This document shows, piece after piece, positions 1 through 20,437 of a DNA stretch of 20,437 nt. Position numbers and translations under genes: made by a program. The stretch lies in contig JBFLYH010000004.1 in assembly GCA_040756875.1 (NCBI GenBank), positions 1 to 20,437 of the forward strand, read 5' to 3'. The stretch's first letter is position 1. Each line of letters opens with the position of its first letter. Origin of the DNA: a candidate division FCPU426 bacterium (lineage in GTDB: Bacteria; Oederibacteriota; JAAXVQ01; JAUVAV01). The notes beneath the pieces are model-generated. The model saw only the letters and a list, made by a program, of their open reading frames with translations. It did no database searches and had not been told where the DNA came from.

Positions 1-1
1 C

Positions 2-3000
2 CGCGGTCTGCGCCTTCTCGCCCTCGGCTTTCAAGGCGCGCAGCATGGCTTTCATCAGGTCGCGCTCCGCCTTCCGGCTTTCCGGCCTGGCCGCGTACCT
101 CAGGTACGCCTGCACGATCGGGCTGTCACCGCGCTGCAGCAGCGCGCCGAACGCCGTCTCGCTCAGGCCCAACCCTCCCACCACGCTCTGCCAGTAACCC
201 ATGGGATCGGCCTGCATGGCGAGCATTTGCATGCGCCGCGACGGGATCAGATGCATCAGGCGGGTGAGAACGGTCAGCCTGGGCCGCGGTACGGCCGTCA
301 TCTGCTCGATTTCGCCCGTATAGGCGCGGGCCACGACGTTCTCAGGCAACTCGGTCTTCAGCACGTCCGCCGCCTCCAATGCCTGTTTGACCGGCGCCGA
401 CACTTCGTACACCTGCGGGTTCGCCAGGTCCACGCCCTGAAGCTGAAGAGTGGTTACCCGGCCGGTCTTCACGCCGATAATGTTGCGAGACAGATCTTCG
501 CCGATCGTGAATACCTCGGCTTGCTCGGCGCGTGCTTGCCGCGCCAGTTCTCCCCTCAGCGCCAGGCCATCCGCCTGTTCCATGAGCCCCAGGGTCCCGG
601 TCGCCGTGCCGCGGATGGCGGTCAGCACGCGTTCGGCCAGTTCCAGCCGGCTGACCAATCCTTCCACGCCCCGGCGGCCACGCAATCCGGCCAGGGCCTG
701 TTGCACTGCAGCCAACTGCGCCTGGTTTGCAGCCGGCATGGATTGCACGTACACTTCCTGTCCGGCTACGGCCGCAACCGTCTCCACGCGCCGGGCTGCG
801 GCGTTCGCGGAAATGGCCTGTTCGCCTGCGATCAACCGGCTGACCACGCCGTTCGCCACCAATTGCCGCCGTGAAGCCTCCAGCTGCTGGCCTTCGCGCG
901 TCAGTTCGCGCAGCACGGCGGCCAGGCTGCCAGGAGCCACTCCCTGCAACTGTGAGGCAATCCGCATGACCGTTGCCAGGCTCGGCTCCGCGCCTTGCTC
1001 CAGCTCCTGCACCAGCGCATCTTTCAAGGCTTGCAGGCTTTGGTCAGCAGCCAGGTTTTGGGCGCTGGCAGCTTCGCGCAGGTATTCGTCAACCAAACCC
1101 GTCAGCTCCATGGCCGTTACGCCCACCTTCTGGCGCGTCGCCTGGTGCCAGGCTGCCGTCAGTTCACCGGCCAGCAGATTGTCCACGGCCGGCGCTTCCG
1201 CCTCAGCCGGCGCGGCCAGCGAAGGCAAACCAAAGGTTTGCGCCACTCCGTCCCACCGGCTGGCTTGATAATATTGTTCGGCCTGATAACCAGCGATCGC
1301 GCCGAAAAGCATGGCCTGGGTCCGGTAGCCCAGCCTGGCCAACGCGGTGCGCAGGGTGCCGTCCGCGGCGGGCATGGGATCAGCCATCTTGCGCAGCAGG
1401 CTGTCCGGCACGAAAATGCTCGCCCATTCGCCATGATCCGCAGCCTGATAATTCTCCTGATAGGCCCCCAGCAACTGCCCGCGCAGCAGGCGCTGCCAGA
1501 AACCACCCAGCTCCGACAAAGGACGGAACCGGATCTGCTTCACGTTGTATTCCCGCGCCGTGATCCGGTCCGGCAGCACCAGCGTCCGTTTGATCGCCTC
1601 AAACCGCGGGCTCAGATCGTCCACGGCCCTCGCGTCCGCGCGGACCCCGGCGAACACTGCCACCACGGTCTGCAGCAGGGCCAGCCCTGCCAGCACCACT
1701 GCCGCCAGCGAACGCACGGGCAGCCTCAGGTTGAGGTTCCCGGTCCCGCGCCCATCGGTCACGAACAAGACGGTCCGCAACCCGTAGTCCAGCAGCCGCC
1801 CCGGCAGGCTCCTCACCCCGCGGATCGGACGGTTCACGCCTTCAGGCAACACTTCCTGCACCCGCTTCAGTTCCGTCTGCACTGCCTGCCCGGCGGCCGT
1901 GGTTTGGGCCGGGGTTTCCGCAGCCTGGCTGGCCAGGACTTCGGCCGGAATCCGGGTGTCGATTTGCACCGGCGCAGCCGTAACCCCCGGCCTGCCTTGC
2001 GCCGCCTGCCAGCGTTGCACCAGGCCTTGCAGTCCCGGCAGCATCGCCAGCATGCCGGCGATGTCGTTCTTAAACTGCTCGTGGAATATGATCCTTTCGG
2101 CTTCCCGAGGATGATCCCGCTGCAGAATGTCCATGGCCGCCGGATTCGCATTGATGGCGTTCGACCAGGCGATCGCGTCCCAGCGGGCCTGGCGTTGCAA
2201 TTCAGCCATCGCCGCGCCGGGAATCGCGTTCACCCAGGCACGGTAGGCCGGCCCGTCCAGCCTCAGGGCGTCGAAACTCGGGTGGTCCGTCTTCCCTGCG
2301 CCGGCCCAATACACCTGCAACTGGGCTTCCAGCATGGCGTCGCGCACAAAGCGGCCCGTATTCAGGAATCCCAGCGCCCCGACGGCCAGATATCCGCCGG
2401 ACAGCGCGGACAAGGTCATGCCCAGCAGGCTCAAGGCCGTGTTTTCCGCGCCCAGTCCGAGGCTGACCGAAATGCCGAACAGCCCGATCGCGCCCACGGC
2501 CGCCACGCCGGCTGCGATATAACCCCACAGCGCCCGGAAAGGATGGGGCCGGTTGAGATAACTCAGCAAAGCCGGCAAACTGATCAGCGCCGCGCCGGCG
2601 ATAATGACCGTGACCGCGGCCACTCCCAGGCCGCCTGTGACCACGGTGCCGATCACGCCGGCCAGGACCAACCCGAAGCCGGCCAGGGCGCTCCATAAAG
2701 TGACGCGCGACCGGGCGTAGCCGCGGTCATCGAGCCGGGCATCAGCCGGACGCCGGCCGGTCTCCCGGACCGCCGCCTCATGGCCAAAGAGCGAGCGCAC
2801 GTAGTACAGCGGCCCCAGCTCAAAGGTGACCTTGGAAAGCAAGTCCGGCCTGGTGGCCTGCACGTGCCGCAAATAAGCCAGGTTGGGCATGGGCGTGTCA
2901 TTGCCGAACAACGCCGCCCCGTGGCTGGCGATTTCGGAACGGAAGCGCGGATCCGTGTTGGTGATGTGCAGCCAGCCGATGATGTCTTGCATGCTGTCAT

Positions 3001-6000
3001 ACCCTTCCAAAACCCGCGCCAGTATTTCCGCACGCAGCTGATCGCGTTCGGCCGCGGTTTTGGCCTGCATGAATTGCCGGCTCAATTCCGGGTGGCCTTC
3101 CACGATCCAATGCCAGGTGTCGAAAACGATCTGAATGGGGACCGTCGTGCCCGGATGCTTGGCCGCCCAGGCGTCCCGCCAGGCCCGCACTTCGGCCACG
3201 CTGGCCTGGAACATGCCCAAATCGCGCCCCTGGGTCAGTTCGAACACCGGCTCAATCAGCAGGCTGATGTTGTTGGCCACGGCCCGCTCGGCCACGGCCA
3301 TGAGCAGCTCCATGCGGCTCTTGCCGGTCAGGCCCTCTTCGCGGGCGAAGATCTCCAGGAACGGGCCAAGCAGCTCGGTATGGATGATCATCTTCGCTTC
3401 CTCGCCCTTTTCAAACTTGCGGTTGATCAGGGGATAGAGGAGCTCGATATGCGTGTCATACGACACGCCGTGCAGGGTCTGGATCTCCAGCTTTCCGCGC
3501 CGCGCCAGGCGTAAAGCCACTTCCGGCTGGTTGCCGTCGTCGTAGATCTCCGCGCGTTTCAAGCCCAGATACCGGCTGGCCACCCACAGGTAGCTGCGCA
3601 GGAAGGCCGGAGTCAGCCACCGCGCCAAGCGCAGAATCGTGGTGTTTTGCACGGAATGCAGGATCATGGTCGGACTCATGGAGATCCCGCCGCGCTGGAA
3701 AACGGTCCGCAGCATTTCGCGGTCCGAAGCGGACAGCGGGCCTTCTTCGTCAGTCTTGGGATAACGGACTTTCAACTGCGCCTGGCGGGTCAGGTGCCGG
3801 CCCAGCAGGACCAAACCGGCCACTGCCAGCAGGCCGGCGGCCAGACCCGTGGCGCCCACGGCAAAGGCCAGATACATCGCGGCAAAAGCCAGGGCTATGG
3901 CGCCCATGAGCATGACCGTGCCCGTGCTGGCGGCGCGCTGTTCGCCCAGAGCCGTGTCGCTCTGAATGGCCTGCACCGCAGCCTGCGGCGAAGCTTCCAG
4001 AACCGTCCGGTTGACAATGCCCGGATTGTCCGCCATAACCAGGCGGAAGATCTCGATTTCCGGAACCAGCCCATAGGGATCGATCACCCGGCCGCGCTGC
4101 AATTCCACGGGCAGTTTCATATCATCCAAGCGGGAGTTGCCGAAATAGAACCGCTGGACCATGCCGTTCATTTGCCGGTAGAAATCCGTCAGCAAGGGCA
4201 GCAGGCGGCCGCGAATTTCGGATTCCGTAAGCCCTTCGGCGATCCACTGCTGGATTTCAGGCCCGTACACATCCATGGCCAAATGCCAGGGATTCAGGGT
4301 GATGCCGATCGGCGCCTGGGCCGCGGTCTTGCCCGGATGGCGCGCCAGCCAGGCATCCTGCAGCTTGCGCACATGGGCGATCAGGTTGCGCATGTAATCC
4401 GCGCGCGAACGGCCGGTTTCATCCAGCAATTGTTCGCTCCGCCAGCCGATCGTGGTCTCCATCAGGATGACGACATTGGCTTCAGAAGCGCGGTCCAGCA
4501 GCGCCAGTTCCTCTTCGCGCACATCGGCTTGCAGGGCGCGGTCCGTGTGGAAGGCCAGGAAGTCGCGGCTGTCAGCCACGCCCGGGCCGCCTTGTTTCAT
4601 GGAGAAATAATCGTCCCAATTCGGCCAGTGAATATTGTAGGAAACCCGCCCGGGATGCTTCATACCCAAGACGCGGTCAATGCTCTCCACCACCGGGTCG
4701 CCCCAGGCATGGTGGTAGCCTGCCGGCTCGGGCAGCTCGCCCTTGGCGATCATGTCCAGCTGCTCAGGCGAGGCGAACACTTCCATGTTGCGGGAACCGG
4801 TGAAGTATTTGTAATAATCGAGGTAGGTGTGAATCATCCAATTCAACGGCTGGCCGTGGACGCGTTCGCCGACAAAGCCGAACGCCACCGTGGAGGCGCT
4901 GGAACGCCCCAGCATGAACTTGGCCAGGGCCGAATCAGACAGTTGCTGGTAATTGCCGGCTGCCAGGGCCGCGCGTTCCTGCGGCGTGTAATCCACCACC
5001 GGCTGGCGCATGGCCAAGCGCCCCAAGCCCGTGAACAGCACCGCCACCAGAAGGCCGGCCAGGAGCACGGCTTTCATCCGCCGGGTCATGAAAACCACGG
5101 TACCGATCACGACCCCGAGCGTTACGACCACCGCGGCCACTGGAATGGAGATCGCGCCGGTCAAGGCCAAGGCCACGCCAGCCACGATCAGGGACGCTCC
5201 GCCCAAGACAGCCGCCAACTCCGCACTGATGAACCCGGCCTCGCCCCTGCGGGTAGCAGTGGTCTCGCCCCGGTCCTTCGCCGCCTGGGCTTCGCTGTAG
5301 CTGTAGACAATGCGGCCCACTTCATCGATGCCTCTGACGATGCCGTGGTATCCATTGGCTTTTCCCTTCGGCTGCAATAAGTAGCCGATGATTTCCCGGA
5401 TGTATTTGGATGGCTTTTTAAGGTCGACGGCCAACGTATAGATGGTAACGACCTGACCTTGCTTCATTTTTTCATAGACTTGTCTAGCTGTCTGGATAAA
5501 ACCGCTTGTCCGGGTCAAAAGAAACGCCGGAACAAACTCAGGAGCCATGTCCAAAAAGAAACTGGCGTCACGGGTCTTGTCCCACTCATTGGTTTTTTGG
5601 TAAGGGACGGAAGCCAAGGCTGCCAGCAGGTTCGCTTGCCGCAGAGCCGCCGTGGCGATTCCGCTTACCTCCCTGTAGGTTTCCATCAAAATGTATTTAT
5701 TCCTGGCCACTTGCTCGACTGCCAAGGCCGCTTTCATTTCATCATCCGATATGACTTGTTGTTCCACCAATCCCCGGAAGACCCGCGCCAATTCCTGTTT
5801 GCGGTCGCCTGCCAACGAGAACAAGCTCGCCAGGTAAGCTATGGCCTCGCTCCGAATGAATAATTCCCGGTTGGCCAAAGCCTGGACAAATTCGTCACGC
5901 AAGGACTCCATGCCTTTTTCGTCCATGCGCGGCAAGGTCTCGGCCAAGGTCCGATAGTATTCCTGCCAGCCTGCCTTGCGTTTCGCGGTGTCCAGCACCT

Positions 6001-9000
6001 GATTCAGTTTTCCCAATGTCGTTTGGGGCGTTGTCTGGCGCTTGCTGGCATAAACCACGCTGTTATCCGGCAGCTTTCTGCGGGCAAAGCCCGCCATGCC
6101 ATCTGCAATCGCTTTTTCAGAAACCAAGTAGGCGGTTATTTTATAGAAGCTATGCCATGGGACAACCAGGAACAATCCCATCTGACTGATTTCCGACCTG
6201 ATGATCCTCGTCAATTCTTCTTCCGTCACTTCTCTTCCCGCTTCCATATGGGCATCCAAAAGGCGGGCAAGGATGTATCGGCCGGCTGCTTCCTCGTCTT
6301 GTTCTATTTGTTCCTGGGCAAGGTGCGTCAGAGATCCCAGCAGCATATGGATGGCGACATTCTGCGGCGACCCCAGCTTGCCAAAGCTCGGATCCATATA
6401 TCCCCGCATCATGCCCATGCCGGCGGCCAAACCTGGCAGCCAGTTAACCAGCCGGAAATTCCAAAAAGCATGCAGGGCAAAAGCCAGCACGGCACCTGCC
6501 ACCGCGCCCAACACCGCACCCAGGCCCGGCAGAACCACACCGCCGAGGACCAATCCTCCCAACACTAATGCCACCATGCCCAGTGCCAAGATCGACTGCT
6601 GGATAATATGCCGCATGGTCCGCGGCACTTCCCGGTAGGTTTGAATATTCCGGTCATAAATCAGTGCCGTTTTACCGTGCAACGCCGAAAATGAAGCGAC
6701 ATAGGCGCCGCCCAACAGTGCCAGCCCGGCAGCCAGGTTCTCCGGCGAAATCGAGAAAAACAAAGCCAGGCCCAGACCGATCACCGGCAGCATGCCCAGG
6801 TGTTCCTTGGCGATTTTCCCCCAGGTCGGCCGGACGGCTGCCGCTGCCGCCGGTACGGCCGCCTCGGCCGCCGGCGCCGCCTTGAGCCCGGCTTCCATCT
6901 GCCGCAGAATGCCGCCCTCCGCGATCCCCCGGTTCACGATCTCGTCCGCGCGCGCCTGCGTGTTCGCGTTCGAATAGATCCTCAGCTGCGGCGCGTTCCC
7001 CGACGGCCTCACGTGCGCCACGTCGTTGTTCGCAAAGCGCACACGCACCCCGTCCACGAAGTTCACGCTCACCACGCCCGCGAACCCGTCCGCTGCCGTG
7101 AAATACTGCTCCAGCTCCGCCTTCTTCCCCTCCAGCTCCACCCGCAGCGCGGCCCCGGGAAGCAGCTCCTTCACTTCCCCGTCGAACATCTCCACATACA
7201 CCGTCCCGTCCCGGAACATCACCTGCCGCACGTACGGGTCGCTCGGCTTCAGGTTCCTCAACAGCAGCTGGCTCGCCGCCACCGGGAAGTTGTCCAACAG
7301 CCCTGCCTGCGTCGAACGCTGCGGCAGCGCCGCGAAGTCCGCCGACACGCTCCCCGCCTTCGCGCCCGACAGCAAGGCCACCACGATCGGCAGGATCGCG
7401 TCACGCGTCGGCAACGCCGCCAGCTTCTTCCCGAACAGCTCCACCTCCGTCGCCGTCAGGAATCCGCCGTTCACTTCCCACGACACCACCACCGGCGACG
7501 CCCCCTTGTACTGCTTCTCCGCCGACGCTTTCATCACCTTCACCGCCGCGTCCATCTCCGCGATCACGTACGGCGACCCGATCTGCGTCTGCTGCAGCTT
7601 GATCCCCGCGCGCCCCAATTCCGTCGCCACCGAATCGTTCGCGCTGATCGGCACCGCCGCGAAATCCGCCCCCAGGTACTTCGCCACCACGATCCCCAGC
7701 TCGTCTCCCCGGTTGAAACGCCCGTTCTCGTCCACCACGAACGGACGGTCCGAATCCCCGTCCGTCGACACGATCGCGAACGGCCGGTGATCCTGCGCCA
7801 ATGCCCAGAAATTCTCCCGCGTCTCCTGCGTCACGTTCTCCGTGTCCTTCGGAACGAATTTCTCGCTCCGCTGCACCGCCACCACGTCCGCGCCCATTCC
7901 CTTCAATATCCGCACCAGCATGTCACGACCCACTGCCGAGTGCTGTTCCACCACGATCTTCTTTCCTGCCAGTGCGTCCTTCGGCAACACGTCCAGATAC
8001 CGCGCCACGAACTCCTCTTCCGCCGCGTTCGTCCCCGCCGGCAGCGCCACTGCCTTCCCACCCTTGAACATCCCGTTCTCCGCGAACAGGCTCTCGTCCG
8101 CCGAACGCGTCACTTCCTCCGAACGCGCCTTGGCCACTGCCGCCAGGATCCCCGTCTCGTCCGCCTTCAGCACCTCGCCCTGCGGCTTGTTGAACTTGAT
8201 CCCGTTCCGGTCGTCCGGAATGTGCGACCCCGTCACCATCACGCTCGCCAGCCCCCGCTGCATCGCGTAGTACATCACCGCCGGGCTCGGCACTTTCCCC
8301 ACGTTCTCCACTTCGCAGCCCGCGTCGCGGATCCCCTGCGCCACTGCCTCCATGATCCGGTCCGTCGAGCTCCTCAGGTCCCCGCCCACCACGATCCGGT
8401 CTCCCCGCTTGATCTGCCCCGTCGCGATCAGGTACTCCACGTACCCCTTCGTGTTGATGTACACTTCCGCGTCCGTCATGTCCGTGACCAGCCCGCGCAG
8501 ACCCGACGTCCCGAACGCCAGCGGCCGGTTCTTCGTCCAGGCGACGACCTGCGCCACGTTGCGGTTCAGCCAGGCCCGAACGCGCTGGGCCAGGCTGGTT
8601 ATCCCCAAGGTTGCGGCGACGGCCATCAAAAGCATCACCGTGCCGAAAAAGATCGTGGTGACCACGTCGCCGTACACCATCACCGGATCGGTCGAGCTCA
8701 CATTGGCATCGTAGCCCGCCATGAAAGCCAGACCCCAATAAACCATCGTCGTGACAAACGACAACACCGTGATGCCCGACATCACAGAAGCGGCGTTTTC
8801 CGCAATCGCGCGGACCGCAGCCAGGCGAGGCATTCCCGGCGCCAGCGCATTCCTGCGCTGCATAAGCGCCACGGTCAGGGTGCCGGCCAAGGCCAGCATC
8901 CCGGCAAACATCAGCACCGCGCCGCCCACAGCCGCTGCGCCGGCCAGGGTCATCGCTAAATAAGCGCCCGCGATCATCGCGCCCAATCCTGCCACGGACA

Positions 9001-12000
9001 GGCCCAGCGTGCTCATGAACCCCAGCGTCGCAAACCCCGCCTCGCCCCGGCGGCCGGCTTCCGGCCGCATCCGGTTCTGCTGCAGGATTTCAGCGACCGG
9101 CAGCTTGTACTTGCCTTCCCTGAAGAAATATTTCATCCGCGCCAGGTTCTTGCCCACCGTGCTGACCGCGAAGCGCTTCAGCGGCAGGGCCGCGATTTGC
9201 GCGCCGAGGGCTTCGGCCGCAGCCGGATCGCTTTCGGCCAGGCGCAGGGGCTCTTTGGCCTGGAAGTCTTCCATATATTGGTCCACCGTATCCATGCGGA
9301 TGCCTTCGCGCTTATAGAACGCGGCCATCTCTTCAGCCACCTGCGCTTCGGATTTTCCGGTCGCTACCGCCTCCAGCTTGGTCACCGTCTCCTTGAAGGC
9401 GTCGATGGCCGCTCCGTGCACTTCGCGGTCCGCATTGATCATGGCCACCAGTGCGCGCAGCAGCAGCCCGCCCAGGCCCACCCAAATCCGGTCCACCAGG
9501 CCGCGCAGCAAACCGTCCCGGGTCGCGCCCGGATAACCGAGGATGTAGTCCCGGCGCTGCCGGAAGACCCGGAAGAGCATCTCGCTGTTGTCCTGCGGCC
9601 TGACCGTGGATTCGGCTTCCGAAGCCAGCCAGGCGATCGGCGCTTCGACAATGGTTTCGCCCAGCAGTTTCAACTGCGTTAGCAGGGCGGTGTCAATGGC
9701 CATTTGCTGAGGGTGTTGCTTGAAGGTCGATTGCATGCGGCGAAGGACATCAGGCGTGAACATTTTGAATCCCCGCTGCGTGTCCGTGATCCGGCCGACG
9801 ATCGGAATCGTGGAGCGGCTCAGCCGAAGCAGGCCGTTGGCCAGCAGGTTGTACACCAGGCTCTTGATCTTGCGGCCTGTGGATTTCGAGGCCACCACTG
9901 AGTCCGAGGCCTCGCTGGTTCCCACTGCTGCATGCGCGCCCCGGCGGATAGGATCCACCAGTAGGCCGATTTGCATCAAATCCGTGGAAATGTCGGCATC
10001 TGTGTAGGAAACGTACGATTTCCGACCGGGGGTTTCGGCGGCCAGCTGCTCGCCCATCCACAGCATATACTGGATGGACCCGCCTTTGCGGCTGAGGCTC
10101 TCGTTGGCGTATTCCGCCAAAACCGGCGCACTGCCCGGCTGCGCAGCTTCGCGCCGGATGGCGTCCTGCACGCGCACCACCTTGAACCTGAGCTGAAGAT
10201 CGGCTTCCAGGCTCCAGGAACCGAAGCGGTCGCCGGTCGCCCGGCCGGACTGACCGAACAGGGCTTCCAGGAAGACCTGCATCATTTCGCCGGAATGGAT
10301 TTCGATGCCCTGGTCGGACTTGGGGCGCACGGTTTCGAACTCGTCGTCGCTGATGACGAATTCCACGCGCAGATTGGGGTTTCGCTGCAGCAGCTCCTGC
10401 ACCTGGGTGATCTTCATGCGCAGGAAGTCCTCGTTAAAGAGACGCATCTGTTCGCCGTATACTGCAAATGTAATGTAGATCGTGGTCGGTTCGGTCACCT
10501 GCAGCAGGCGCAGCATGGAATCCGCGTTTTTTGCCGCAGCCTTGAACCAGTAGGAAGAGGAAGCGGAGCGGGCCGCGCCGGCGATCGCGTCAAAACCCAC
10601 CGTTCCTTCGGCCGCATGATACAAAAGCGCACTCATCACCCGCTGGCCGTTCAATTCTGCCAGGTTTTTCTGGTCAAACAGGTCCGTGTCCGTCAAGTGC
10701 TCGCGCATGAAGGCCACAGCTTCCTGGTGTCCCTGTTTTTGTTTTTCCTCGAGGGTCTTGTAGAACCGGGTCACTTGAAGCTTGCGGGCCATGTCCGCAG
10801 CCAGGCTGGTTTTGGCCGCGTCGTAGGCGAACAAATTCAGGGCGGGTTCGGCCAGAATCTGGATGGCATTGACCGCCTCGGTTTCCGAAGCGGATGCCAG
10901 GGCTTGGGCCTGGATTTCATCCACGGTAGCGCGCGCGATCAAGGCCGCGGATGCGAGCATCTGTTCCCTTTTCACCCCGTCTGTGCTGGCATGTTCCAGG
11001 GTGAGGTCCTGGATAATATCGACAAACTGCAAGGCTGGATTCTGGTAAGCAGAGGCCATGAGGCTGGCCAATACGGCCATGGCTTCGCCTTCGCTGACGA
11101 ATTCACCGGCTGCCAGCGCCTGGTCAAAGGCTTCCATGAGCTGCGCGAACTCCGCGGGGTCCTTCATCTGCCGGACCTGCCAGCCCAGATCATTGGTCGC
11201 CGCCTTTTTCGCGGCCTGCATGAACACCTGCTTGTCCACTTTTTCTTTCTTGCGTTTGGCCTCGGCCACCAATGCATCATAGTGGCCTGAGGTCAGGTTC
11301 CTGAACCGGATCGCGCCTTCCGTACCCGGCGTTTCCGGTTCCGCAGGCGTGCGCCCCAGCAGGCGGGTGAGCGCGCGACCGATATAAAAACGCAGAGGGT
11401 GGGATTGGTTGAACGCCCAGGCTTGCAGGACTTGGAAGACCGCGTCAATCAGGATCTGCGCGATGGAGCGGATGGGCAGGATCAGCATCCCAACAGCCAT
11501 GCTCATGGGAATGACGTTTTGCAGGACGAAATTGTAAGCAATGGCAATGGGCGCCTTGGCAATGAAGAAATCCATGAACTTCTTGCTTTCGTTCTTGAAG
11601 CTGAACGACTTGAGGGATTTTGCGAAAAAGGTGGTGATGATCCAATACTCGAACATCATCACCACCGTGCCCGCGCCTAAAACCGTGCGCACCCATTTGA
11701 CCGCCCAATCCATGCCTTGCAGGGCCTCGGTCCACCCCAGGGCCTGCGCCAGGCCCGAGGCGCCCCAGCCCGCAGCCGGCGCGGCCCAGTCGATGAAGTT
11801 GAAGATCAATTGGGTCTGGATGCCAAAGGTCAGGCCGATGAGCGTGGCCATGACCGATTGTTTCAATTTATATTCCGGCCGGTCGGATATTTTCTGGCCG
11901 ATGGCGTCCGTAATGCCCGCAATGGCGCCGCCGGTCAGGGCGGACAGGGCGTACGGTTCGATAAGGCGCCAGAATCCGATCAGGTTTTCGGTGCTGAACG

Positions 12001-15000
12001 TTTCCGTATTGCCGAGCAACAGCGCCGCACCCACGGCAATGGCCAGGGTGGCGCCCACGCTGATGATGGCCAGCATGCGGCGGGAGGCGAAGTTTCCTTG
12101 TTTGACCGCCTCGGCCGCGGTCTGCGGCCCGGCGGCAGGGGCTTCCTCGGCTTCGTATTTTTTCGGCTGCGCGGCTGCCATAATGAGCATACTGCCGACA
12201 GGCACTGTCTCCGAAGACCCTTCCACGCTTTGGCTCCACTGGTAGAGCCGCGCGAAATCACCGCTATGCAAAATAATTCGGATGGTATTAAAAAGTCTGA
12301 TTTTGTCGCTGTATTCCGATTTTTCCACCACGGATGCGGTTTTCGGCAACGCGGCGCCATGCTCTACGATGTCGAGACAGACGGCTTCGAAGTGGGCGGC
12401 TGCCTTGGCGGTCAGCAGGCCGTTGGCCAGCGCGCTGCGCACCCAGGAAATGCCGGTGAGCGCCTGATGCTGCAGCTTGGTCTGGCCCGGGGCAAAATAG
12501 CCGCCCACCACGGGATTGAGGCGGTCCACCACCTGATCGAAATCGTTCTTGGCTTGGGTGAAATCCCGCATGCCAATCATAATGGGCTTAAAACGGGGCA
12601 CCTGGGCCAACTCTGGAACCGGCGCCAGGTTGATGTCCATTTCCCGCAGAAGCTGGTTTTTAACCTCGTCTTTTTCCGCAAAAGTGCCTTTCTGGCTGGA
12701 GGCTTCCAGGATGCGGTTGATCAGGTCCAGGTTCAGATCATTGGCCGAGATGTTGGTCAAAGCCAGCATGGCTTCGAAAGAGGTCACGTCCTGGACCATG
12801 AGGTTGATCTTGATGCCCAGCGCCTTGGTTTCGCAGGTAATGGGCAGGATGGCCATCATGAACCGTCCCACCAATTCGTCGCGGTAAATCCACTCGGCCT
12901 GGCCGATGGCGCGGATGCGCCCTGCCACCTGCCGTTCCAGTTGCACGCGCCGTTCCAAAACAGCCTGCGGATCGTCCTGATGGGTTTGCGCGAACTGCAG
13001 CCAGGCATGGTAAGCCTGCTTGATCTCCCGGTCGCGATTGACTGCATCCATGATCGGATCGCGGCCAAGGTGGTTGGCGTTGAAATCACGCTGCAGGATC
13101 ACCATGGCCACGTTTTGGGGGACCGTGAGGGTCTCGCCGCGGCTGTTCGTGAAGGGCACTTGTTTGGTGTAGTTGCTTTTTTCCACAAAACGCGCGCCGC
13201 CCGCCACTTCCAGCAGGTGGCCGCCTGCCTTCTGGGAATAGTGGAACAAGGATTGCTTTTTGTCTTCGAATTCAATCTGCAGGCCCTGCACCCGGTCTTC
13301 CACCTGGGTTTGGAATGCACGGATGGCTTCGAAAATAAGGTCGCGCTGGGCGGTTTTGTCCTTTTCCGCGGAAGCGCGCTGCACCAACTCCATGGCCGCG
13401 TCGCGGCCGGCTTCCAGGGCGCGCTCTTCGGGGGCGAGCTCCAGCACGGTCGAATCCGCGAAAAAGACGCGTCCTTCTCCCACTTTAATCACTCTTTTGC
13501 CGTTGATGTGGACAACCCGGTTGGCTTCCCATTCGCGTTTGATGTCATCCAGCCGGTTGTAGAAAACCACTTCCTGCGGCGTGACCAGAGGCACGAACGG
13601 CGACTGGCCGGTGCGGATCAAGTACGACATGGCACTGGTAGTGAAGGGATCCCCCAGGTCGTCGCCCTGGATGTGGTCCCAAATTTTCCCCTGTTCGATG
13701 ATGCTGGCCAGGCGTTCCGCGTTGCTGACAATGGCCCGGACCAGGAAGCCGTGTCCGCCCACATCCACCACGGATTCGACGAAGTGGCCGGCTTCATCCA
13801 CAAAATGCACCACCACCTGGGTGAGGATGTCCTTGCCGCTGCCCAGCATGCGCTCGATGGCCGTGACCGTGGGCATGCCGCCGATCCATACGGCTCCGGG
13901 CGCGCGCGACGCCAGGAGCGGAATGGTCAGGCCCACATAATGGTAGCCGCCGATTTGGGCCAGCTCGTAGGTGCCGGCCCCCCGGCTTTCCCAGTAAGCC
14001 TTGAAAGCTTCCACCTTTTCCGGCAGCAGCTTGAAAACCGGGGTGATCATTTTGTTTTCCTGGAAAAAGTCCTCCAAAATGCGGCTGCCTTGCCCGGCAA
14101 TGCCGATTTCAGACACTGCCTGGTGTTCGGTCACCTGGACGCCCTGGGCCAGAAACTGCCGGCTCAAATCCGGTTTCTGGGTCACCTCCAGGAAATTGGC
14201 TGACACCAGATCGCCTTCGGCCAGTTGTCCGTCCGAACTGACCACAGTGCCCCGGTTGTTGACTTCGGTCCGGATCTGGGAGCGGGCTTGGGGGCGGGCG
14301 AAGAAGTCCATCAGCAGTTCCGGATAACCCATTTTCAATTTAGTGAAGTAAATGAGCAATTGCTGAGCCTGCCGGCGAAGATCGCGCGATACGGCCATCG
14401 TGGGCAGATAGGGCGCCATCTGCAAGAACATTTTGACGCGTTCCATGGCCGTGGTGAAGGTGTCGTAATTCAGGGCTTGTTTGCTGGCCAGGATGGCCAG
14501 GGCGTCCAGATAGGCGGTGAATTGTTCCTCGCTCAGGCTGCCGGCCGTGGCCAGAGTCAGGAGATTGGTCTGCGCGATTGCCTCCAGCGCGGTTTGGATC
14601 TGCTCCGGAGTGTACGCCACTTCAGCCACACCCGGCAGTTCGGTAATAATGCGCAGGCCCTGGGGGACCTGTTTGATGACCTGGCCGGCAGTCACGTCCT
14701 TCACGCCCAGGAAAGCCCGCAGACCGGGATTGCCCAGGAGCACTTCGCTGTCCAGCAGGTTCTCCAGGGGCAGGCGCTCGTGGTTGACGCCGTCAACCGT
14801 CACCCAGCGCGAACCGAGCTGGAAGTAGGTCTTGCCTTCCACTTCCAGAAGGCTGCCCTGCAGGGTGCGGCCTGCCAGGCTGAGGGTGAACGGCCGCTGT
14901 TTTTTCACGAATTGGGACATGGCCTGGCCCTGGACCGGTTCAGGCTGGCCCATGGCAATGCGAATGCGCACGCGCTTGCCGTCGACGGTCGCCTGGACGG

Positions 15001-18000
15001 TATCGCGGTTTTGCCATATGGATACTGCCACGACCACTGCCAGCACTGCTGCCCCTACGCCGATCAGGACGCCGGACAGCAAGGTGACCGTGCCGGCCGT
15101 AAAAATCATGCTGATGCCGATGGCGGCAGTGACCAGCCCGGCAATGACCGAGGCGGTTTCCACGGTCGCAAACCCCGCCTGGCCCCGACGGGCGGTTTGC
15201 AGACGGCGGTCATGGACTTCGATAATCCTCCCTATGGCCCGTTTGATTTCCGAGTCGCTGGATGTTGCCGCCAGTCTCTCCAAATCCGGCCGCAACACGC
15301 CGTTGATTTCCCCCATCGGCAGCAACTTCGTTTCCATTTCTGCCGCTATGCGTTCCAGGCTCTTCAGCATCGTTTGCCGTATCTTACCGCCTATTTCCAA
15401 GCTGGTGCGGAAAACCCGCAAAAACAAATCGCCCTCCGTCAGGAATTTGCCTTGGGAGTTGCCTATTTCTTCCCAAATCTGCTCAATCATGCCTGTCACC
15501 CAAGTTTGCCGCCGCCCAGCCGATGTTCGAGCAATAAACAAGAGGTCGTCCAGGAGATCGATCTTATTCGAAAGCCTTTGCTGACTCAGAAACATCTCAG
15601 CTTGAATCCGGGCATTAGCGGCGCCGTTTTGGACAAACTGTTCCACATTTGTACGGAACTCCGCTTCACTTCCCCGCTCCCGGTATGGAGGTGTTTCCAG
15701 ACGGTTGTCATGGATCTTCAAAACCCGCGCAGCCGACCGGCGGACTTCCGGATCATTCGCCATGGCCGCCAGCCATTCCAAATCAGCCCGCAACACGCCA
15801 TTGATCTCTCCCATTGATATTATTTTAACGTCGATTTCGGCTGCAAGGCGTTCCAGGTTCGCCAATACCGCCAGTTGCGTCCTGCGGTCCATGCTCATGC
15901 TGGCGCGGAAGGCCGTTAGAATTTTCTCGTTCTTTATAAAATACCGGCCTTTCAAATCCGCCGCTTTTTCCCAGGCCTGTATGACCATCCCGGCAAACCA
16001 CGCCTGCTGGGTTTTGCTCGTGGTTTGAGCTAAAAATGACAGGTCGTCGACCATGTCCATCTTGCCGGGAACATCCTGCTGGGCGTAATAAGCCTCCGCG
16101 GAGGTTTTCGCACCCGTTTCGGACGTTTCGGCATATCGCTGGACATCCGCCAAAAATTGTTTCTCTCTTTCATACATAACTTGGTAGCATTTGATTACCA
16201 TGTCATCCGTCGCATCGCGCTGCAAGGAGTTGATAACCAACGCAGGCAACGCTAACATGAGCAATCCGACGATCAGAATTGAATTGCGCGTTTTTTGATC
16301 TTTTGCAGACACCACCCTCATTACAATTCGCAGCGCAATGACAGTCACCACCAGGGCGCCGCCGATTAAAAGAATTGTTCCTGTCAACAACCCGGTTGCC
16401 CACAAAGTGTAGCCACCGATGCCCAAAGCCGAGAGAATGGCCAGTAAGCGTGCCGCGCTTATTTGGATGAACCCCGCCTGGCCCCCACGGGCGGTCGTGG
16501 TCTCGCCCCGGTCCTTCGCCGCCTGGGCTTCGCTGTAACTGTAGACGACACGGCCCGCTTCATCGCTGCTTTTAACGATACCAAGAAATCCCTTGGCTTT
16601 GGCTTTCGACTGCAATAAATACTCCAAAACCGTTTCAACATAGTCGGACGATTTTTTCAGCTCCTCTGACACGGAGTATTCAGTGACTGCCTGTCCTTGT
16701 TTCATTTTTTCATAGATTTGACTGGCCATCCGTACAAATTTGCCCGTGCGTGATAAAATGAACATCGGAATAAACACTATGTCTAGTCCATCAAGAACGC
16801 CTTCCTCGTTGATCACTGTATACCCTTCAGGGTTGGAATAGGAGGCGGAAGATAAGCTGCCCAGCAAGTTTGTTTGCCTCATGACGGCAGAGGCTGTGTC
16901 ACGCACCTCGCGGTAGGTTTCCAGCAAAACATGCCGATTCCGTGGGATTTGTTCGACTGCCAACGCGGCCTTCAATTCGTCTTCCGACAGGGCTCGGGTT
17001 TCCACCAAACCACGGAAGAGGTTGACCAATTCCTGCCTGCGGTCGCCTGCCAGCGCAAACAAACTCGATAAATAAGCCAAGGCCTCATCCCGGATGGTCA
17101 TTTCCCGATTAGCCAGGGCCAGGGCAAACTCGTCCCGCAGAGATTCCAGGTTTTTCGCGTCCATTCCCGGCAAGGCCTGCGCCAGCGCCTGATAATGCTT
17201 CTGCCAACCCGTGCGGCGCGTTTCAGTATCCAGCACTTGATTCAGCTTCCCGGGCATGGTTTGCGGCGCCGCCTGGCGCTTGCTGGTGTAAATCACAGTT
17301 TGATCCGGAAGGGTTTTACGTTCAAAGCCTGCCATCCCTGTTTTCGCCGCTTTATTTGAAATTAAAAGCTTGGCAACTTCCCCGTAATGATTTTCCGGAA
17401 TGAGGGAGGATAAATCCATTTGCCGGGTTTCGGATTCAATAGCCGCGAACAAGGTTTTTTCCGTGATTTGTTCACCCGCCGCCAAGTGAGCATCCAACAA
17501 ACCGGCCACGAGAAACCGGGCAAAGATTCTCGCCCGGTGCAACTTCGCTTCCTCTGCCGCTTCCTCCGCCATTTCCCCTACTCGATCCATCATAGACATG
17601 GTGACATGCTGGATCGATCCCATTTCTCTGCCGTAAACCGCGGGATTCAAGTATGTTTTTGTCGGATCCCAATACGGGCGCAGAGTTCCCGCGGCGATAT
17701 CAGGCCACCAGCGCATCAGGCGGAAATTCCATCCCGCATGCAGAAATAAAGCCAGCACAGACCCGGCGAGAGCGCCCACGACCGCACCCACGCCCGGTAA
17801 AAGCATTCCTCCCAGGACCAGCCCACCCAAGGCCAGGGTCGCCATTCCCAGTGCCAAGATCGACTGCTGAATAATATGCCGCCTGGTCCGCGGCACTTCC
17901 CGGTATTTTTGTTCTTTCCGGTCATAAACGAGCACTGTTTTGCCGTGTAAGGCCGCGAACGTGACGGCATACATTCCGCCTATAGCCGCTACACCTTCAA

Positions 18001-20437
18001 CCAGATATTCCGGCGACGCCCAATAGAATATCGCTAAACCCAAGCCGATGACTGGCAACAATGTCAGGTTTTCCTTGAGAATCTTTCCCCAGGTCGGCCG
18101 GACGGCTGCCGCTGCCGCCGGTACGGCCGCCTCGGCCGCCGGCGCCGCCTTGAGCCCGGCTTCCATCTGCCGCAGAATGCCGCCCTCCGCGATCCCCCGG
18201 TTCACGATCTCGTCCGCGCGCGCCTGCGTGTTCGCGTTCGAATAGATCCTCAGCTGCGGCGCGTTCCCCGACGGCCTCACGTGCGCCACGTCGTTGTTCG
18301 CAAAGCGCACACGCACCCCGTCCACGAAGTTCACGCTCACCACGCCCGCGAACCCGTCCGCTGCCGTGAAATACTGCTCCAGCTCCGCCTTCTTCCCCTC
18401 CAGCTCCACCCGCAGCGCGGCCCCGGGAAGCAGCTCCTTCACTTCCCCGTCGAACATCTCCACATACACCGTCCCGTCCCGGAACATCACCTGCCGCACG
18501 TACGGGTCGCTCGGCTTCAGGTTCCTCAACAGCAGCTGGCTCGCCGCCACCGGGAAGTTGTCCAACAGCCCTGCCTGCGTCGAACGCTGCGGCAGCGCCG
18601 CGAAGTCCGCCGACACGCTCCCCGCCTTCGCGCCCGACAGCAAGGCCACCACGATCGGCAGGATCGCGTCACGCGTCGGCAACGCCGCCAGCTTCTTCCC
18701 GAACAGCTCCACCTCCGTCGCCGTCAGGAATCCGCCGTTCACTTCCCACGACACCACCACCGGCGACGCCCCCTTGTACTGCTTCTCCGCCGACGCTTTC
18801 ATCACCTTCACCGCCGCGTCCATCTCCGCGATCACGTACGGCGACCCGATCTGCGTCTGCTGCAGCTTGATCCCCGCGCGCCCCAATTCCGTCGCCACCG
18901 AATCGTTCGCGCTGATCGGCACCGCCGCGAAATCCGCCCCCAGGTACTTCGCCACCACGATCCCCAGCTCGTCTCCCCGGTTGAAACGCCCGTTCTCGTC
19001 CACCACGAACGGACGGTCCGAATCCCCGTCCGTCGACACGATCGCGAACGGCCGGTGATCCTGCGCCAATGCCCAGAAATTCTCCCGCGTCTCCTGCGTC
19101 ACGTTCTCCGTGTCCTTCGGAACGAATTTCTCGCTCCGCTGCACCGCCACCACGTCCGCGCCCATTCCCTTCAATATCCGCACCAGCATGTCACGACCCA
19201 CTGCCGAGTGCTGTTCCACCACGATCTTCTTTCCTGCCAGTGCGTCCTTCGGCAACACGTCCAGATACCGCGCCACGAACTCCTCTTCCGCCGCGTTCGT
19301 CCCCGCCGGCAGCGCCACTGCCTTCCCACCCTTGAACATCCCGTTCTCCGCGAACAGGCTCTCGTCCGCCGAACGCGTCACTTCCTCCGAACGCGCCTTG
19401 GCCACTGCCGCCAGGATCCCCGTCTCGTCCGCCTTCAGCACCTCGCCCTGCGGCTTGTTGAACTTGATCCCGTTCCGGTCGTCCGGAATGTGCGACCCCG
19501 TCACCATCACGCTCGCCAGCCCCCGCTGCATCGCGTAGTACATCACCGCCGGGCTCGGCACTTTCCCCACGTTCTCCACTTCGCAGCCCGCGTCGCGGAT
19601 CCCCTGCGCCACTGCCTCCATGATCCGGTCCGTCGAGCTCCTCAGGTCCCCGCCCACCACGATCCGGTCTCCCCGCTTGATCTGCCCCGTCGCGATCAGG
19701 TACTCCACGTACCCCTTCGTGTTGATGTACACTTCCGCGTCCGTCATGTCCGTGACCAGCCCGCGCAGACCCGACGTCCCGAACGCCAGCGGCCGGTTCT
19801 TCGTCCAGGCGACGACCTGCGCCACGTTGCGGTTCAGCCAGGCCCGAACGCGCTGGGCCAGGCTGGTTATCCCCAAGGTTGCGGCGACGGCCATCAAAAG
19901 CATCACCGTGCCGAAAAAGATCGTGGTGACCACGTCGCCGTACACCATCACCGGATCGGTCGAGCTCACATTGGCATCGTAGCCCGCCATGAAAGCCAGA
20001 CCCCAATAAACCATCGTCGTGACAAACGACAACACCGTGATGCCCGACATCACAGAAGCGGCGTTTTCCGCAATCGCGCGGACCGCAGCCAGGCGAGGCA
20101 TTCCCGGCGCCAGCGCATTCCTGCGCTGCATAAGCGCCACGGTCAGGGTGCCGGCCAAGGCCAGCATCCCGGCAAACATCAGCACCGCGCCGCCCACAGC
20201 CGCTGCGCCGGCCAGGGTCATCGCTAAATAAGCGCCCGCGATCATCGCGCCCAACCCTGCCACGGACAGGCCCAGCGTGCTCATGAACCCCAGCGTCGCA
20301 AACCCCGCCTCGCCCCGTCCGGCCAGGGGCCTGGGCTGCTCGGGTTCGACCACCACGCGGTCCCCCGCCTGCCGCACCCGCACGCCCTTGGTCCCGAACA
20401 CCGCCACCACTCCGTTGTCCGTCGTCACCACCGTGCG
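2..20437 (-). CDS. Giant multidomain membrane protein, partial at both ends (>=6,812 aa in window), with sugar-nucleotide and glycosylation enzyme domains separated by TM bundles
   Basis: Manual translation of the frame starting at 20437 runs RTVVTTDNGVVA... to ...KAEGEKAQTA with no stop seen. None of the minus-strand ORFs in the track lies in this frame, as expected if it never closes. The longest plus-strand ORFs (995, 2780, 3647, 6800, 9971, 11717, 14225, 18281) share its codon register, i.e. they are antisense shadows. Recognisable enzyme motifs fall in this frame throughout. Confidence 0.96.
2810..3680 (-). other. Domain: xylose-isomerase-like/AP-endonuclease-2 TIM barrel (sugar phosphate isomerase/epimerase family)
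   Basis: AEIY, QTLHG, MIIH, AVANNISLLIEPV, IQIVFDTWH, IGWLHITN, SHG, VTFE: the typical E, DxxH, HxxD-like and E metal-site pattern. Confidence 0.7.
3995..4900 (-). other. Domain: xylose-isomerase-like/AP-endonuclease-2 TIM barrel, degenerate copy
   Basis: YNIHWP, LAFH, VVILMET, PIGITLNPWH, RFYFGN, TVLE in barrel order. Shares DAWxAxHPG...PIxIxx[D/N]xWH with the downstream barrel. Confidence 0.55.
5219..5251 (-). other. Internal class III signal-peptide-like motif RRGEAG|FISAE followed by TM helices
   Basis: Basic residues, G(-1)|F(+1), E(+5), then LAAVLGGASLIVAGVALAL. Confidence 0.6.
5231..6818. repeat. Diverged continuation of the duplicated cassette, copy A (CPBP-like TMs, helical region, wHTH-like units)
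   Basis: Protein aligns with 16469-18086, e.g. YREVPRTxRHIIQQSILALGM, GKLNQVLDT, ESLRDEF, KAALAVEQ, YEKMKQGQ, VYSYSEAQAAKDRGETT, with many substitutions and a net 30-nt indel. Confidence 0.92.
6431..6812 (-). other. Domain: CPBP/CAAX-protease-like intramembrane segment, degenerate (copy A)
   Basis: FSALH (6677-6691) and HAFWN (6458-6472) in TM helices. The EExxxR motif is absent (IAKEHL). Confidence 0.45.
6819..9049. repeat. 2,231-bp near-identical direct repeat, copy A (4-TM bundle + PMM + Ala/Pro linker)
   Basis: Matches 18087-20317 at an in-frame offset of 11,268 bp. The duplicated ORF-track translations are identical. One synonymous mismatch noticed (8987 t vs 20255 c). Confidence 0.97.
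6881..8524 (-). other. Domain: phosphomannomutase, ManB-type alpha-D-phosphohexomutase (copy A)
   Basis: Same sequence as copy B: FGTSGLRG, TGSHIP (Ser codon 8225-8227), DGDSDR (7745-7762), WEVNGG, RPSGNAP. Confidence 0.95.
9020..9052 (-). other. Internal class III signal-peptide-like motif RRGEAG|FATLG followed by TM helices
   Basis: Same motif without E+5. It coincides with the repeat boundary at 9049. Confidence 0.55.
9545..10490 (-). other. Domain: GT2 glycosyltransferase, dolichyl/polyprenyl-phosphate beta-glucosyltransferase-like
   Basis: ITFAVYGEQMRL, EFVISDDE, RKGGSIQY, YTDADISTD (DxD at 9992-10000), ITDTQRGFKMF (cf. DTQCGFKLF), AIDTALL, IVEAPIAW. Confidence 0.85.
11400..11945 (-). 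other. Domain: Mpv17/PMP22-like multi-TM segment
   Basis: ALTGGAIAGITDAIGQKI resembles Mpv17/PMP22 TM1 (lT.g.l...gD.iaQ.i). It is followed by IGLTFG...IFNFID, further helices and YNFVLQNVIP. Confidence 0.45.
12500..14130 (-). other. Domain: divergent UDPGP-family (UDP-glucose/UDP-GlcNAc pyrophosphorylase-like) nucleotidyltransferase
   Basis: Family motifs in the expected order: IAGQGSRI (cf. AGGxGTRL), GGHGFL (PxGHG), HIQGDDLG (NxDNLG), KAGGHL...FVEK (KGG...llE), FNANHL (FNTNN), LP...GIKINLMVQD, RDFTQAKN (RFxPVK). Confidence 0.65.
15158..15190 (-). other. Internal class III signal-peptide-like motif RRGQAG|FATVE followed by TM helices
   Basis: G|F with E(+5), then TASVIAGLVTAAIGISMIFTAG. 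Confidence 0.6.
15200..16170 (-). repeat. Two tandem diverged ~166-aa alpha-helical (HEAT/ARM-like) repeats
   Basis: KMDMVDDLSFLA...LERLAAEIDVKIISMGEINGVLRADLEWLAAMANDPEVRRSAARVL vs KIDLLDDLLFIA...LERIAAEMETKLLPMGEINGVLRPDLERLAATSSDSEIKRAIGRII. The MGEINGVLR blocks are 498 nt apart. Confidence 0.85.
16457..16489 (-). other. Internal class III signal-peptide-like motif RGGQAG|FIQIS followed by TM helices
   Basis: Same motif without E+5. It marks the end of homology of cassette copy B. Confidence 0.55.
16469..18086. repeat. Diverged continuation of the duplicated cassette, copy B
   Basis: Homologous to 5231-6818 (same conserved blocks). Confidence 0.92.
17702..18080 (-). other. Domain: CPBP/CAAX-protease-like intramembrane segment, degenerate (copy B)
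   Basis: Hydrophobic helices with FAALH (FxxxH, 17945-17959) and HAGWN (HxxxN, 17726-17740). The EExxxR motif is absent (ILKENL). Confidence 0.45.
18087..20317. repeat. 2,231-bp near-identical direct repeat, copy B
   Basis: Matches 6819-9049. Identity breaks at 20318/9050 and at 18086/6818. Confidence 0.97.
18149..19792 (-). other. Domain: phosphomannomutase, ManB-type alpha-D-phosphohexomutase (copy B)
   Basis: FGTSGLRG N-terminus; GDLRSS; phosphoserine loop TGSHIP (Ser codon 19493-19495); metal loop DGDSDR (19013-19030); sugar loop WEVNGG; phosphate loop RPSGNAPQLR. Confidence 0.95.
20288..20320 (-). other. Internal class III signal-peptide-like motif GRGEAG|FATLG followed by TM helices
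   Basis: Same motif. It coincides with the repeat boundary at 20317. Confidence 0.55.
20342..20437 (-). other. Domain fragment: probable C-terminal beta region of a mannose-1-phosphate guanylyltransferase (ManC-like), truncated by the window edge
   Basis: RTVVTTDNGVVAVFGTKGVRVRQAGDRVVVEP resembles the ManC C-terminal pattern (lVatiGvedlvvVdtgDavLV) and precedes a ManB cassette. Only 32 aa are visible. Confidence 0.45.

Follow-up and report, generated by a model that had tools for sequence, protein, structure and literature searches.

In this work we describe a giant gene that occupies the whole of a 20,437-nucleotide stretch of DNA (the window) from a candidate division FCPU426 bacterium (GenBank assembly GCA_040756875.1, contig JBFLYH010000004.1, here contig C4). 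The frame is a real gene under purifying selection, and it belongs to a lineage-restricted family of giant genes whose expansion has brought it to about 7% of the genome. We believe that its product is best read as a membrane-tethered, cytoplasm-facing multi-enzyme scaffold for sugars, probably mannose, built from cassettes at the inner membrane, and we give this reading a probability of roughly 0.55. According to a survey (PMC11573180), huge bacterial proteins are mostly nonribosomal peptide synthetases, polyketide synthases (NRPS/PKS) or surface adhesins. Giants in which several enzymes are threaded through the membrane are known mainly from preprints on Omnitrophota.

A single reading frame across the window

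On the minus strand, positions 2-20437 form one frame of 6,812 sense codons with zero stops and both ends open. This confirms the uninterrupted frame of more than 20 kb and at least 6,812 codons claimed in a preliminary description of this DNA, to which the strand is added here; translation, checked for an in-frame stop as that description had proposed, gave none. The openness at both edges that it had also reported holds as well, and its meaning is that the gene was cut by the assembly. In fact, the window is the entire contig C4, one of the 7 contigs (3.22 Mb) of a genome with a completeness score of 100%, and the gene is therefore truncated at both ends, the frame being the middle to near-C-terminal portion of a giant gene. 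It had been missing from the default list of open reading frames solely because frames that run off the source go unlisted. Considering the base composition, a stop would be expected about every 31 codons, and the probability of finding none in 6,812 codons is about 1e-98. The longest frame in the other five frames of the window had 828 amino acids (aa). Long plus-strand frames (up to 828 aa; for example 11717-14203, 6800-8959 and 18281-20227) are antisense shadows of the minus-strand gene, which is rich in GC at third codon positions (GC3).

The coding pattern GC3 > GC1 > GC2 was found in 10 of 10 full blocks of 681 codons, with values of 0.65-0.89 for GC3, 0.60-0.73 for GC1 and 0.38-0.48 for GC2. 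The dN/dS ratio was 0.19 between the last 624 codons of the frame and a paralogue on contig C6, and 0.26 between the diverged halves of an internal duplication (515 codons). An ortholog, in an 8,376-aa frame, lies on contig 13 of G003, a genome from a different genus of the same family as the window's organism. It is co-linear with residues 4-765, 1727-3794 and 5048-6095 of the window protein (45-75% identity), and between these blocks entire modules are inserted or absent, residues 766-1726 having no counterpart in it.

A chimeric contig made from paralogous repeats and staying open by chance, or a decaying pseudogene, would be another explanation for so long a frame. Paralogue repeats are indeed present at the contig ends, and inside the contig there is an exact in-frame direct repeat of 2,168 nt (6819-8986 = 18087-20254, offset 11,268 nt), which lies within a duplicated cassette. 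Nevertheless, a second assembly of reads, the Logan contigs of one public groundwater-metagenome run, tiles positions 1-18116; the pieces listed from position 179 onward showed no differences and the first piece a single A>G at position 128, although this lone run is possibly the assembly's own source. Positions 18117-20000 had almost no Logan contig cover because the repeat unitig was placed once. The repeat forms a single unitig with a depth of 114.6 and the neighbouring depth is about 56, as fits two true copies, and at exactly double depth the sole remaining path is therefore A-R-B-R-C. Given also the chance probability above, the uniform coding signature, the purifying selection and the co-linear ortholog in another genus, we consider an artefact or a pseudogene extremely improbable.

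Sugar enzymes between membrane-helix bundles

Hydropathy analysis (Kyte-Doolittle, 19-aa window) of the protein disclosed 26 hydrophobic stretches, 3 of which are within enzyme domains; the remainder make up 11 bundles separating soluble modules. Five soluble modules were identifiable as enzymes and about four large ones were orphans, so that the alternation of enzyme domains with transmembrane (TM) bundles noticed in the preliminary description holds. A cassette consists of a membrane-helix bundle followed by a soluble module, and the recognisable modules are all sugar enzymes. The features, in the order of the residues of the window protein and with membrane features placed by hydropathy, are as follows.

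20300-20320, minus strand: junction motif GRGEAGF, residues 40-46, directly before TM bundle 1 (RRGQRGS in the G003 ortholog)
19853-20293, minus strand: TM bundle 1, residues 49-195, about 4 helices
18087-20254: exact direct repeat copy 1, 2,168 nt, residues 62-784
18200-19786, minus strand: phosphohexomutase (PGM/PMM) copy 1, residues 218-746, from Pfam domains I-IV and loop motifs
17729-18082, minus strand: TM bundle 2, residues 786-903, about 4 helices
16490-17728, minus strand: orphan soluble module, residues 904-1316 (about 413 aa)
16469-16489, minus strand: junction motif RGGQAGF, residues 1317-1323
16217-16474, minus strand: TM bundle 3, residues 1322-1407
15191-16165, minus strand: two tandem internal repeats of about 166 aa, orphan, residues 1425-1749, 34% identical
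15170-15190, minus strand: junction motif RRGQAGF, residues 1750-1756 (RSGEAGF in the G003 ortholog)
15008-15169, minus strand: TM hairpin, residues 1757-1810
12080-15007, minus strand: orphan soluble module of about 976 aa, residues 1811-2786
11426-12079, minus strand: multi-pass membrane region, residues 2787-3004
9056-10552, minus strand: putative divergent family 2 glycosyltransferase (GT2) module, residues about 3296-3794, with TDAD at 3479 and TQRGFK at 3553
9032-9052, minus strand: junction motif RRGEAGF, residues 3796-3802
8585-9025, minus strand: TM bundle of the second cassette copy, residues 3805-3951
6819-8986: exact direct repeat copy 2, 2,168 nt, residues 3818-4540
6932-8518, minus strand: phosphohexomutase copy 2, residues 3974-4502, from Pfam and loop motifs
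6455-6805, minus strand: TM bundle, residues 4545-4661
5252-6454, minus strand: orphan soluble module copy 2, residues 4662-5062, 52-53% identical to residues 904-1316
5231-5251, minus strand: junction motif RRGEAGF, residues 5063-5069 (GRGEGGF in the G003 ortholog)
5009-5239, minus strand: TM bundle, residues 5067-5143, about 3 helices
3938-5005, minus strand: predicted xylose-isomerase-like TIM barrel 1, residues 5145-5500, from a model and fold search
3788-3934, minus strand: TM hairpin, residues 5502-5550
2708-3787, minus strand: predicted xylose-isomerase-like TIM barrel 2, residues 5551-5910, from its alignment with barrel 1 (paralogue)
2348-2707, minus strand: TM bundle, residues 5911-6030
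1637-1729, minus strand: hydrophobic segment, residues 6237-6267
23-1690, minus strand: family-defining C-terminal module of about 560 aa, from profile relatives and a predicted model

The windowed search with hidden Markov models (HMMs) and the structure prediction that had been suggested for this frame were both run; the former identified the mutases through Pfam and the latter a TIM barrel through an AlphaFold2 (AF2) model. In mutase copy 1, domains I, II and IV scored 87.7, 46.9 and 30.4 bits, all above cut-off, and domain III 16.6 bits, below its Pfam cut-off of 20.7. The loops TGSHIP (residue 313), DGDSDR (470), EVNGG (565) and RPSGNAP (721), which we take to be the phosphoserine, metal, sugar and phosphate loops, are all present in both copies. 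The window modules thus keep the I-IV domain order and the four loops of the alpha-D-phosphohexomutases (PF02878/79/80, PF00408) but, unlike them, the domain sits between two four-helix bundles within a giant chain, and it does so twice. The fused modules were 51-60% identical to free-standing genes of 549-565 aa (contig C7 and genomes G002, G003 and G007), and ordinary phosphohexomutase copies are also found on contig C2 of the window's genome. Since the two copies of the cassette are 100% identical over the 2,168 nt and only 52-56% identical (protein) in their remaining parts, this exact repeat in a diverged cassette looks like a recent gene conversion between the copies.

Pfam yielded no match for the GT2 module itself, whereas 16 of its 22 free-standing relatives (about 400 aa), to which it is only about 30% identical, carried PF00535. 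When a 16-sequence profile of the module was compared with the PDB, the sole match, which covered the DxD core, was dolichol-phosphate mannose synthase 5mlz (E 3.7e-4). The window module aligns with GT2 enzymes of this type at the DxD (TDAD) and the catalytic core, and differs from them in being fused behind a multi-pass membrane region. These comparisons suggest a divergent GT2 that is closest to dolichol-phosphate mannose synthase, with a putative donor and acceptor.

By sequence, the TIM barrels gave no significant Pfam or PDB match, a weak one of barrel 2 to AP_endonuc_2 (E 0.1) being below the Pfam cut-off. In the VIA fold search, ketose 3-epimerases and sugar isomerases matched the AF2 model of barrel 1 (pLDDT 85, pTM 0.87) with Z 12.6-14.7, 213-239 residues being aligned at a root-mean-square deviation of 3.4-4.3; the Foldseek match was marginal (E about 1e-3). 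The barrel alignment contained invariant His and Glu residues. Both modules share the eight-stranded fold of the xylose-isomerase-like barrels (ketose 3-epimerases, sugar isomerases, IolE; e.g. 5h1w), from which they are set apart by an identity of 7-16%, an N-terminal extension and a membrane tether. On the basis of the model, the two window modules are predicted to fold as xylose-isomerase-like TIM barrels with a putative reaction.

Concerning the orphan modules, NCBIfam gave nothing above cut-offs, and sequence searches of the PDB produced no significant match. Residues 904-1316 had no match in Pfam, NCBIfam or the PDB, and this module was present in 1 of the 41 genomes searched, its own. 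Residues 1811-2786, about 50% identical to their counterpart in G003, had no family or PDB match by sequence and no usable match in the ESM Atlas. The model of the C-terminal module (pLDDT 81) reached Foldseek TM-scores of at most 0.13, the best score in a wide VIA search was Z 6.2, for a helical sub-bundle, and the ESM Atlas had no usable match. The predicted fold has no match among solved ones, which is not proof of a new fold. Pfam scans of the whole protein and of pieces did not detect NRPS/PKS domains (condensation, adenylation, ketosynthase, acyltransferase or carrier) or adhesin-repeat domains, and when the protein was compared with itself, a single duplicated cassette and two weak internal repeats were all that emerged, as opposed to the tandem Ig-like or beta-helix repeats of adhesins. 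Within Pfam's sight, the earlier statement that the gene is neither an NRPS/PKS nor a repeat adhesin stands, as no piece contained such a domain.

A family of giants with conserved ends

The window gene belongs to a family whose plan has four parts: an N-terminal anchor with a conserved head (about 500-650 aa), variable cassettes, the C-terminal module of about 560 aa (C-module) and, last, a tail of some 110 aa that closes with ...AA. The C-module has 39 relatives among 1.84 billion representative proteins. Of the 99 species genomes that represented the phylum in the set searched, 14 had it, all from a single order and, within it, from two families. In the family of the window's organism these were the window's genome and 9 of the 10 others, and in the sister family 4 of 4, as compared with 0 of 84 in 21 other families. 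The frames that bear it reach 13,678 aa and also include short ones of 529-590 aa (in G001 and G003). In every complete paralogue and most of the 39 relatives the C-module ends about 85-110 aa before the stop, and the tail domain lies beyond it.

Eight giant frames of the window's genome (2,248-12,551 aa) share the basic tail ...RR..R..[GSAD][QST]AA-stop.

C1:375288-412940, tail-bearing giant frame
C2:60456-97805, tail-bearing giant frame
C1:1055290-1085400, tail-bearing giant frame
C1:760691-787111, tail-bearing giant frame
C2:1078294-1099182, tail-bearing giant frame
C3:396737-415210, tail-bearing giant frame
C2:52442-60280, tail-bearing giant frame
C3:389904-396647, tail-bearing giant frame

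An HMM built from the eight tails matched only true C-termini, plus two ends on which it had not been trained: the C-terminus of a 5'-open piece on contig C5 and, at the start of contig C7, a stretch of 67 codons. Among the 7,420 frames that have 150 aa or more and end in a stop, 9 close with [GSAD][QST]AA, and 7 of these 9 are giants of 2,613-12,551 aa; the eighth giant ends in ...TGAAA. Similarly, 28 of the 39 family representatives, from other metagenomes, end in AA (consensus ...RRRxxF[RK]Sxx[QV]AA), which we take to resemble degron or PDZ-ligand ends. The head, about 450-630 aa behind the N-terminal anchor, is common to 7 of the tail-bearing giants and 29-42% identical to a frame on C7. 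It had no Pfam match below E 0.003 and no PDB relative. The alignment of eight heads (C7:2571-4475 among them) showed invariant QDLHC, EG and GGFH motifs, the spacing of which is presumably loosely like that of Tiki/TraB/ChaN-type hydrolases, a likeness that no tool supports. Seven complete paralogues have both head and tail. The eight tail-bearing frames and four fragments amount to 226.6 kb or 7.0% of the genome, and a family that takes about 7% of a 3.2-Mb genome presumably matters to the organism. Its conserved ends (head, C-module and AA tail) define the family and make the problem of such giants more tractable.

As for the two ends that the window lacks, contig C7 (1-5844) begins with 67 tail codons ending in ...STSVAA and a stop, followed by a free 549-aa phosphohexomutase (352-1998) and a 3'-open giant head (2436-5843). 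It shows in unfused form what is fused in the window. Over its first 700 residues or so, the 3'-open frame aligns with the start of the G003 ortholog, from residue 1 onward, and a 492-nt double-depth unitig extends 284 nt beyond window position 1. We infer that the window frame has its stop some 110 codons beyond the end of the contig and that the C7 frame is probably the head of the window gene. Another chain, from the end of C2 through C4 to the start of C5, had contig-end similarity in its favour and was rejected because the C2-end and C5 pieces are without the family head; it is also ruled out by the position of the C-module 85-110 aa before the stop, by C7 starting in a tail and by the match of the G003 N-terminus to C7.

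Contig C6 (3-12971) consists of an edge-to-edge open frame of 4,323 aa that is a paralogue of the window gene. Its last 624 residues are 72-89% identical to those of the window and it ends at the same homologous position. In this paralogue, a GH99-like domain scored 34.5 bits (cut-off 33) and a GH130 domain 56.9 bits, and two more TIM barrels are present. Two paralogues of Lnt (apolipoprotein N-acyltransferase), 51% identical, flank the 6,963-aa giant (C2:1076274-1078028 and C2:1099254-1100957), and these were the only conserved neighbours of giants found, beside that one giant. There are, besides, giant frames without the head: C2:1101430-1119828 (6,133 aa) and C3:418737-425474 (2,246 aa), which are repeat-rich and mutually 23-28% identical, and C2:1120118-1134622 (at least 4,835 aa) and C5:4713-17894 (at least 4,394 aa), 97% identical at the contig ends. 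These headless giants seem to represent another family located in the same region.

Possible function and relation to other giants

The substrates of phosphohexomutases and GT2 enzymes are sugar phosphates and nucleotide sugars of the cytoplasm. The 20-aa flanks of the 11 bundles are rich in Lys and Arg (K/R), with 34 K/R versus 25 Asp and Glu (D/E) on the N side and 37 versus 19 on the C side, the protein average being 0.105 K/R per residue. Because both flanks are K/R-rich and the mutase and GT2 need cytoplasmic substrates, we would place the soluble modules in the cytoplasm. The helix bundles would be hairpins that keep these modules on the cytoplasmic face, and one chain would gather at the membrane the enzymes for hexose (probably mannose) phosphates and for sugars on lipid carriers, where the scaffold may serve the making or recycling of envelope glycans. 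A mannose theme is suggested by the PMM-type mutase, by the likeness of the GT2 to dolichol-phosphate mannose synthase and, in the C6 paralogue, by the GH99-like and GH130 domains. The chain may have grown by fusion of neighbouring genes, since the same modules are separate genes in relatives: C7 and the genomes G002, G003 and G007 each have the phosphohexomutase as a frame of its own (549-565 aa), which in G003 lies directly downstream of a giant ending with the C-module. Modules that are both fused and free in close relatives are natural fusion/fission controls, and the enzyme content offers concrete assays (mutase, GT2, isomerase).

Several points weigh against this scaffold. No nucleotidyltransferase module was found that would link the mutase to GT2, and breakdown would account for GH99-like and GH130 modules in the paralogue just as well as synthesis would. 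Modules without known family or fold hold more than half of the residues, so that the named enzymes may be accessory. The topology was derived from hydropathy and charge counts only, and several bundles may have an odd number of helices (e.g. residues 5067-5143), which would put later modules outside. Furthermore, the contig carries neither end of the gene, the link from C7 to C4 was guided by the ortholog and not by reads, and the groundwater run is not independent if it was the assembly's source sample.

The main rival is a polyprotein, made as one chain and cut at a junction motif into separate membrane-anchored enzymes, with the AA tail and the head serving its handling or processing. The motif, R-[RGS]-G-[EQ]-x-G-[FS], occurs five times in the window protein, always directly before a helix bundle, and it is kept at 3 of the 4 comparable G003 junctions despite poorly conserved surrounding linkers; the DNA is conserved there too (72-80% over 46 nt). 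Moreover, modules that exist as separate genes in relatives can work alone, and cleavage of Omnitrophota giants has been proposed in print (West-Roberts et al. 2023 preprint). However, neither the window nor the head yielded a protease domain, and other bundles of the window protein are without the motif. All five significant matches of a motif HMM in the window's own genome were in C4, and the motif, being private to this gene there, was rejected as a genome-wide hallmark of giants; in 14 other genomes of the order there were 12 matches versus 7 control matches, that is, no clear enrichment. The idea that the motif marks a fused former C-terminus is also weak, because the HMM of the 110-aa tail had no internal match in the window protein: with no such domain in front of them, the junctions are not simply the ends of former genes. 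We regard the polyprotein as unlikely, and the short conserved motif as a candidate cleavage site open to testing. A bolder proposal, to our mind quite unlikely, is that of operons in one reading frame, in which neighbouring genes of membrane-anchored enzymes would be repeatedly fused and split between the conserved head and a ...RRRxxFRSxxQAA-COOH tail, the chain would be cut post-translationally at R-x-G-[EQ]-x-G-F, and the AA tail would be a recognition tag for handling machinery of its own, e.g. an unfoldase or a PDZ-type protease. If true, bacteria would have here a cellular polyprotein system whose cleavage code can be read.

The remaining rival comes from the giant multi-TM, multi-enzyme proteins described from Omnitrophota, which include PGM/PMM and glycosyltransferase domains (West-Roberts et al. 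2023 preprint; Nielsen & Lui 2026 preprint). The preliminary description had stated that such giants are reported from that group, and these sources bear it out. By analogy, the window protein could be an Archaeovorin-like surface weapon or attachment protein with large parts outside the cell, binding and digesting cell wall glycans of prey or host. The overall design is that of the Omnitrophota giants, which carry glycosyltransferases and occasional PGM/PMM domains; the GH99-like and GH130 domains of the C6 paralogue and possible odd helix counts in some bundles would also suit this role. On the contrary, mutase, GT2 and GH130 enzymes use cytoplasmic phosphorylated or nucleotide-activated substrates, the bundle flanks are positively charged on both sides, and the giants of this genome have neither a SecA-like domain nor a signal for export by the type IX secretion system (T9SS), although 68 T9SS sorting domains were matched elsewhere. 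The genome itself, with 3.2 Mb and a 100% completeness score, is unlike the small genomes described for predatory Omnitrophota. We find a surface weapon very unlikely and retain the cytoplasm-facing sugar scaffold as the preferred reading.

The preliminary description had also suggested that the gene may belong to the Omnitrophota class, and here the likeness of design stood and membership was not supported. What the Archaeovorin-type giants have in common with the window gene is a very long single frame in which many TM helices separate soluble enzyme domains, among them glycosyltransferase and PGM/PMM domains, and in which long stretches lack annotation; such genes also occur several to a genome, and cleavage is a question in both. 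A divergent SecA DEAD or preprotein-binding domain is present in most of them (West-Roberts et al. 2023 preprint). In the window's own genome, the search for such a domain (PF07517) yielded the canonical SecA and a sub-threshold match of 19-21 bits, and none in the giant frames, though a very divergent copy could escape the model; the weak match was rejected as a SecA-type domain, the protein being RecG. HEAT, TPR or dockerin repeats were not seen by Pfam in the window protein, which is a further difference. The window family has its own head, C-module and ...AA tail and is confined to one order of a phylum of 99 species. As to size, the classes used for the Archaeovorin type are 'giant' (at least 30,000 aa) and 'large' (at least 10,000 aa), and the giants described have 30,000-147,000 aa, as opposed to the approximately 12,500 aa reached in the window's genome, where the window gene has at least 6,812 aa on its contig and complete paralogues up to 12,551 aa.

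It was rightly cautioned in the preliminary description that taxonomy cannot be read from the window alone. Genome-wide, there were 68 matches to T9SS sorting domains (C-terminal domains, CTDs), 66 of them above cut-off, and none on C4 or in the giants with head and tail. A phylum with only 99 species genomes in the set searched, together with a T9SS, indirectly suggests an FCB-type candidate phylum rather than Omnitrophota. On descriptions and domain content, therefore, the window gene has a design like that of the Omnitrophota giants and is set apart as a separate, narrowly distributed family, so that the same design has arisen in another lineage. Several other large frames of this genome (2,154-3,185 aa) do carry T9SS CTDs and correspond to adhesin-like cargo, distinct from the giants with head and tail.

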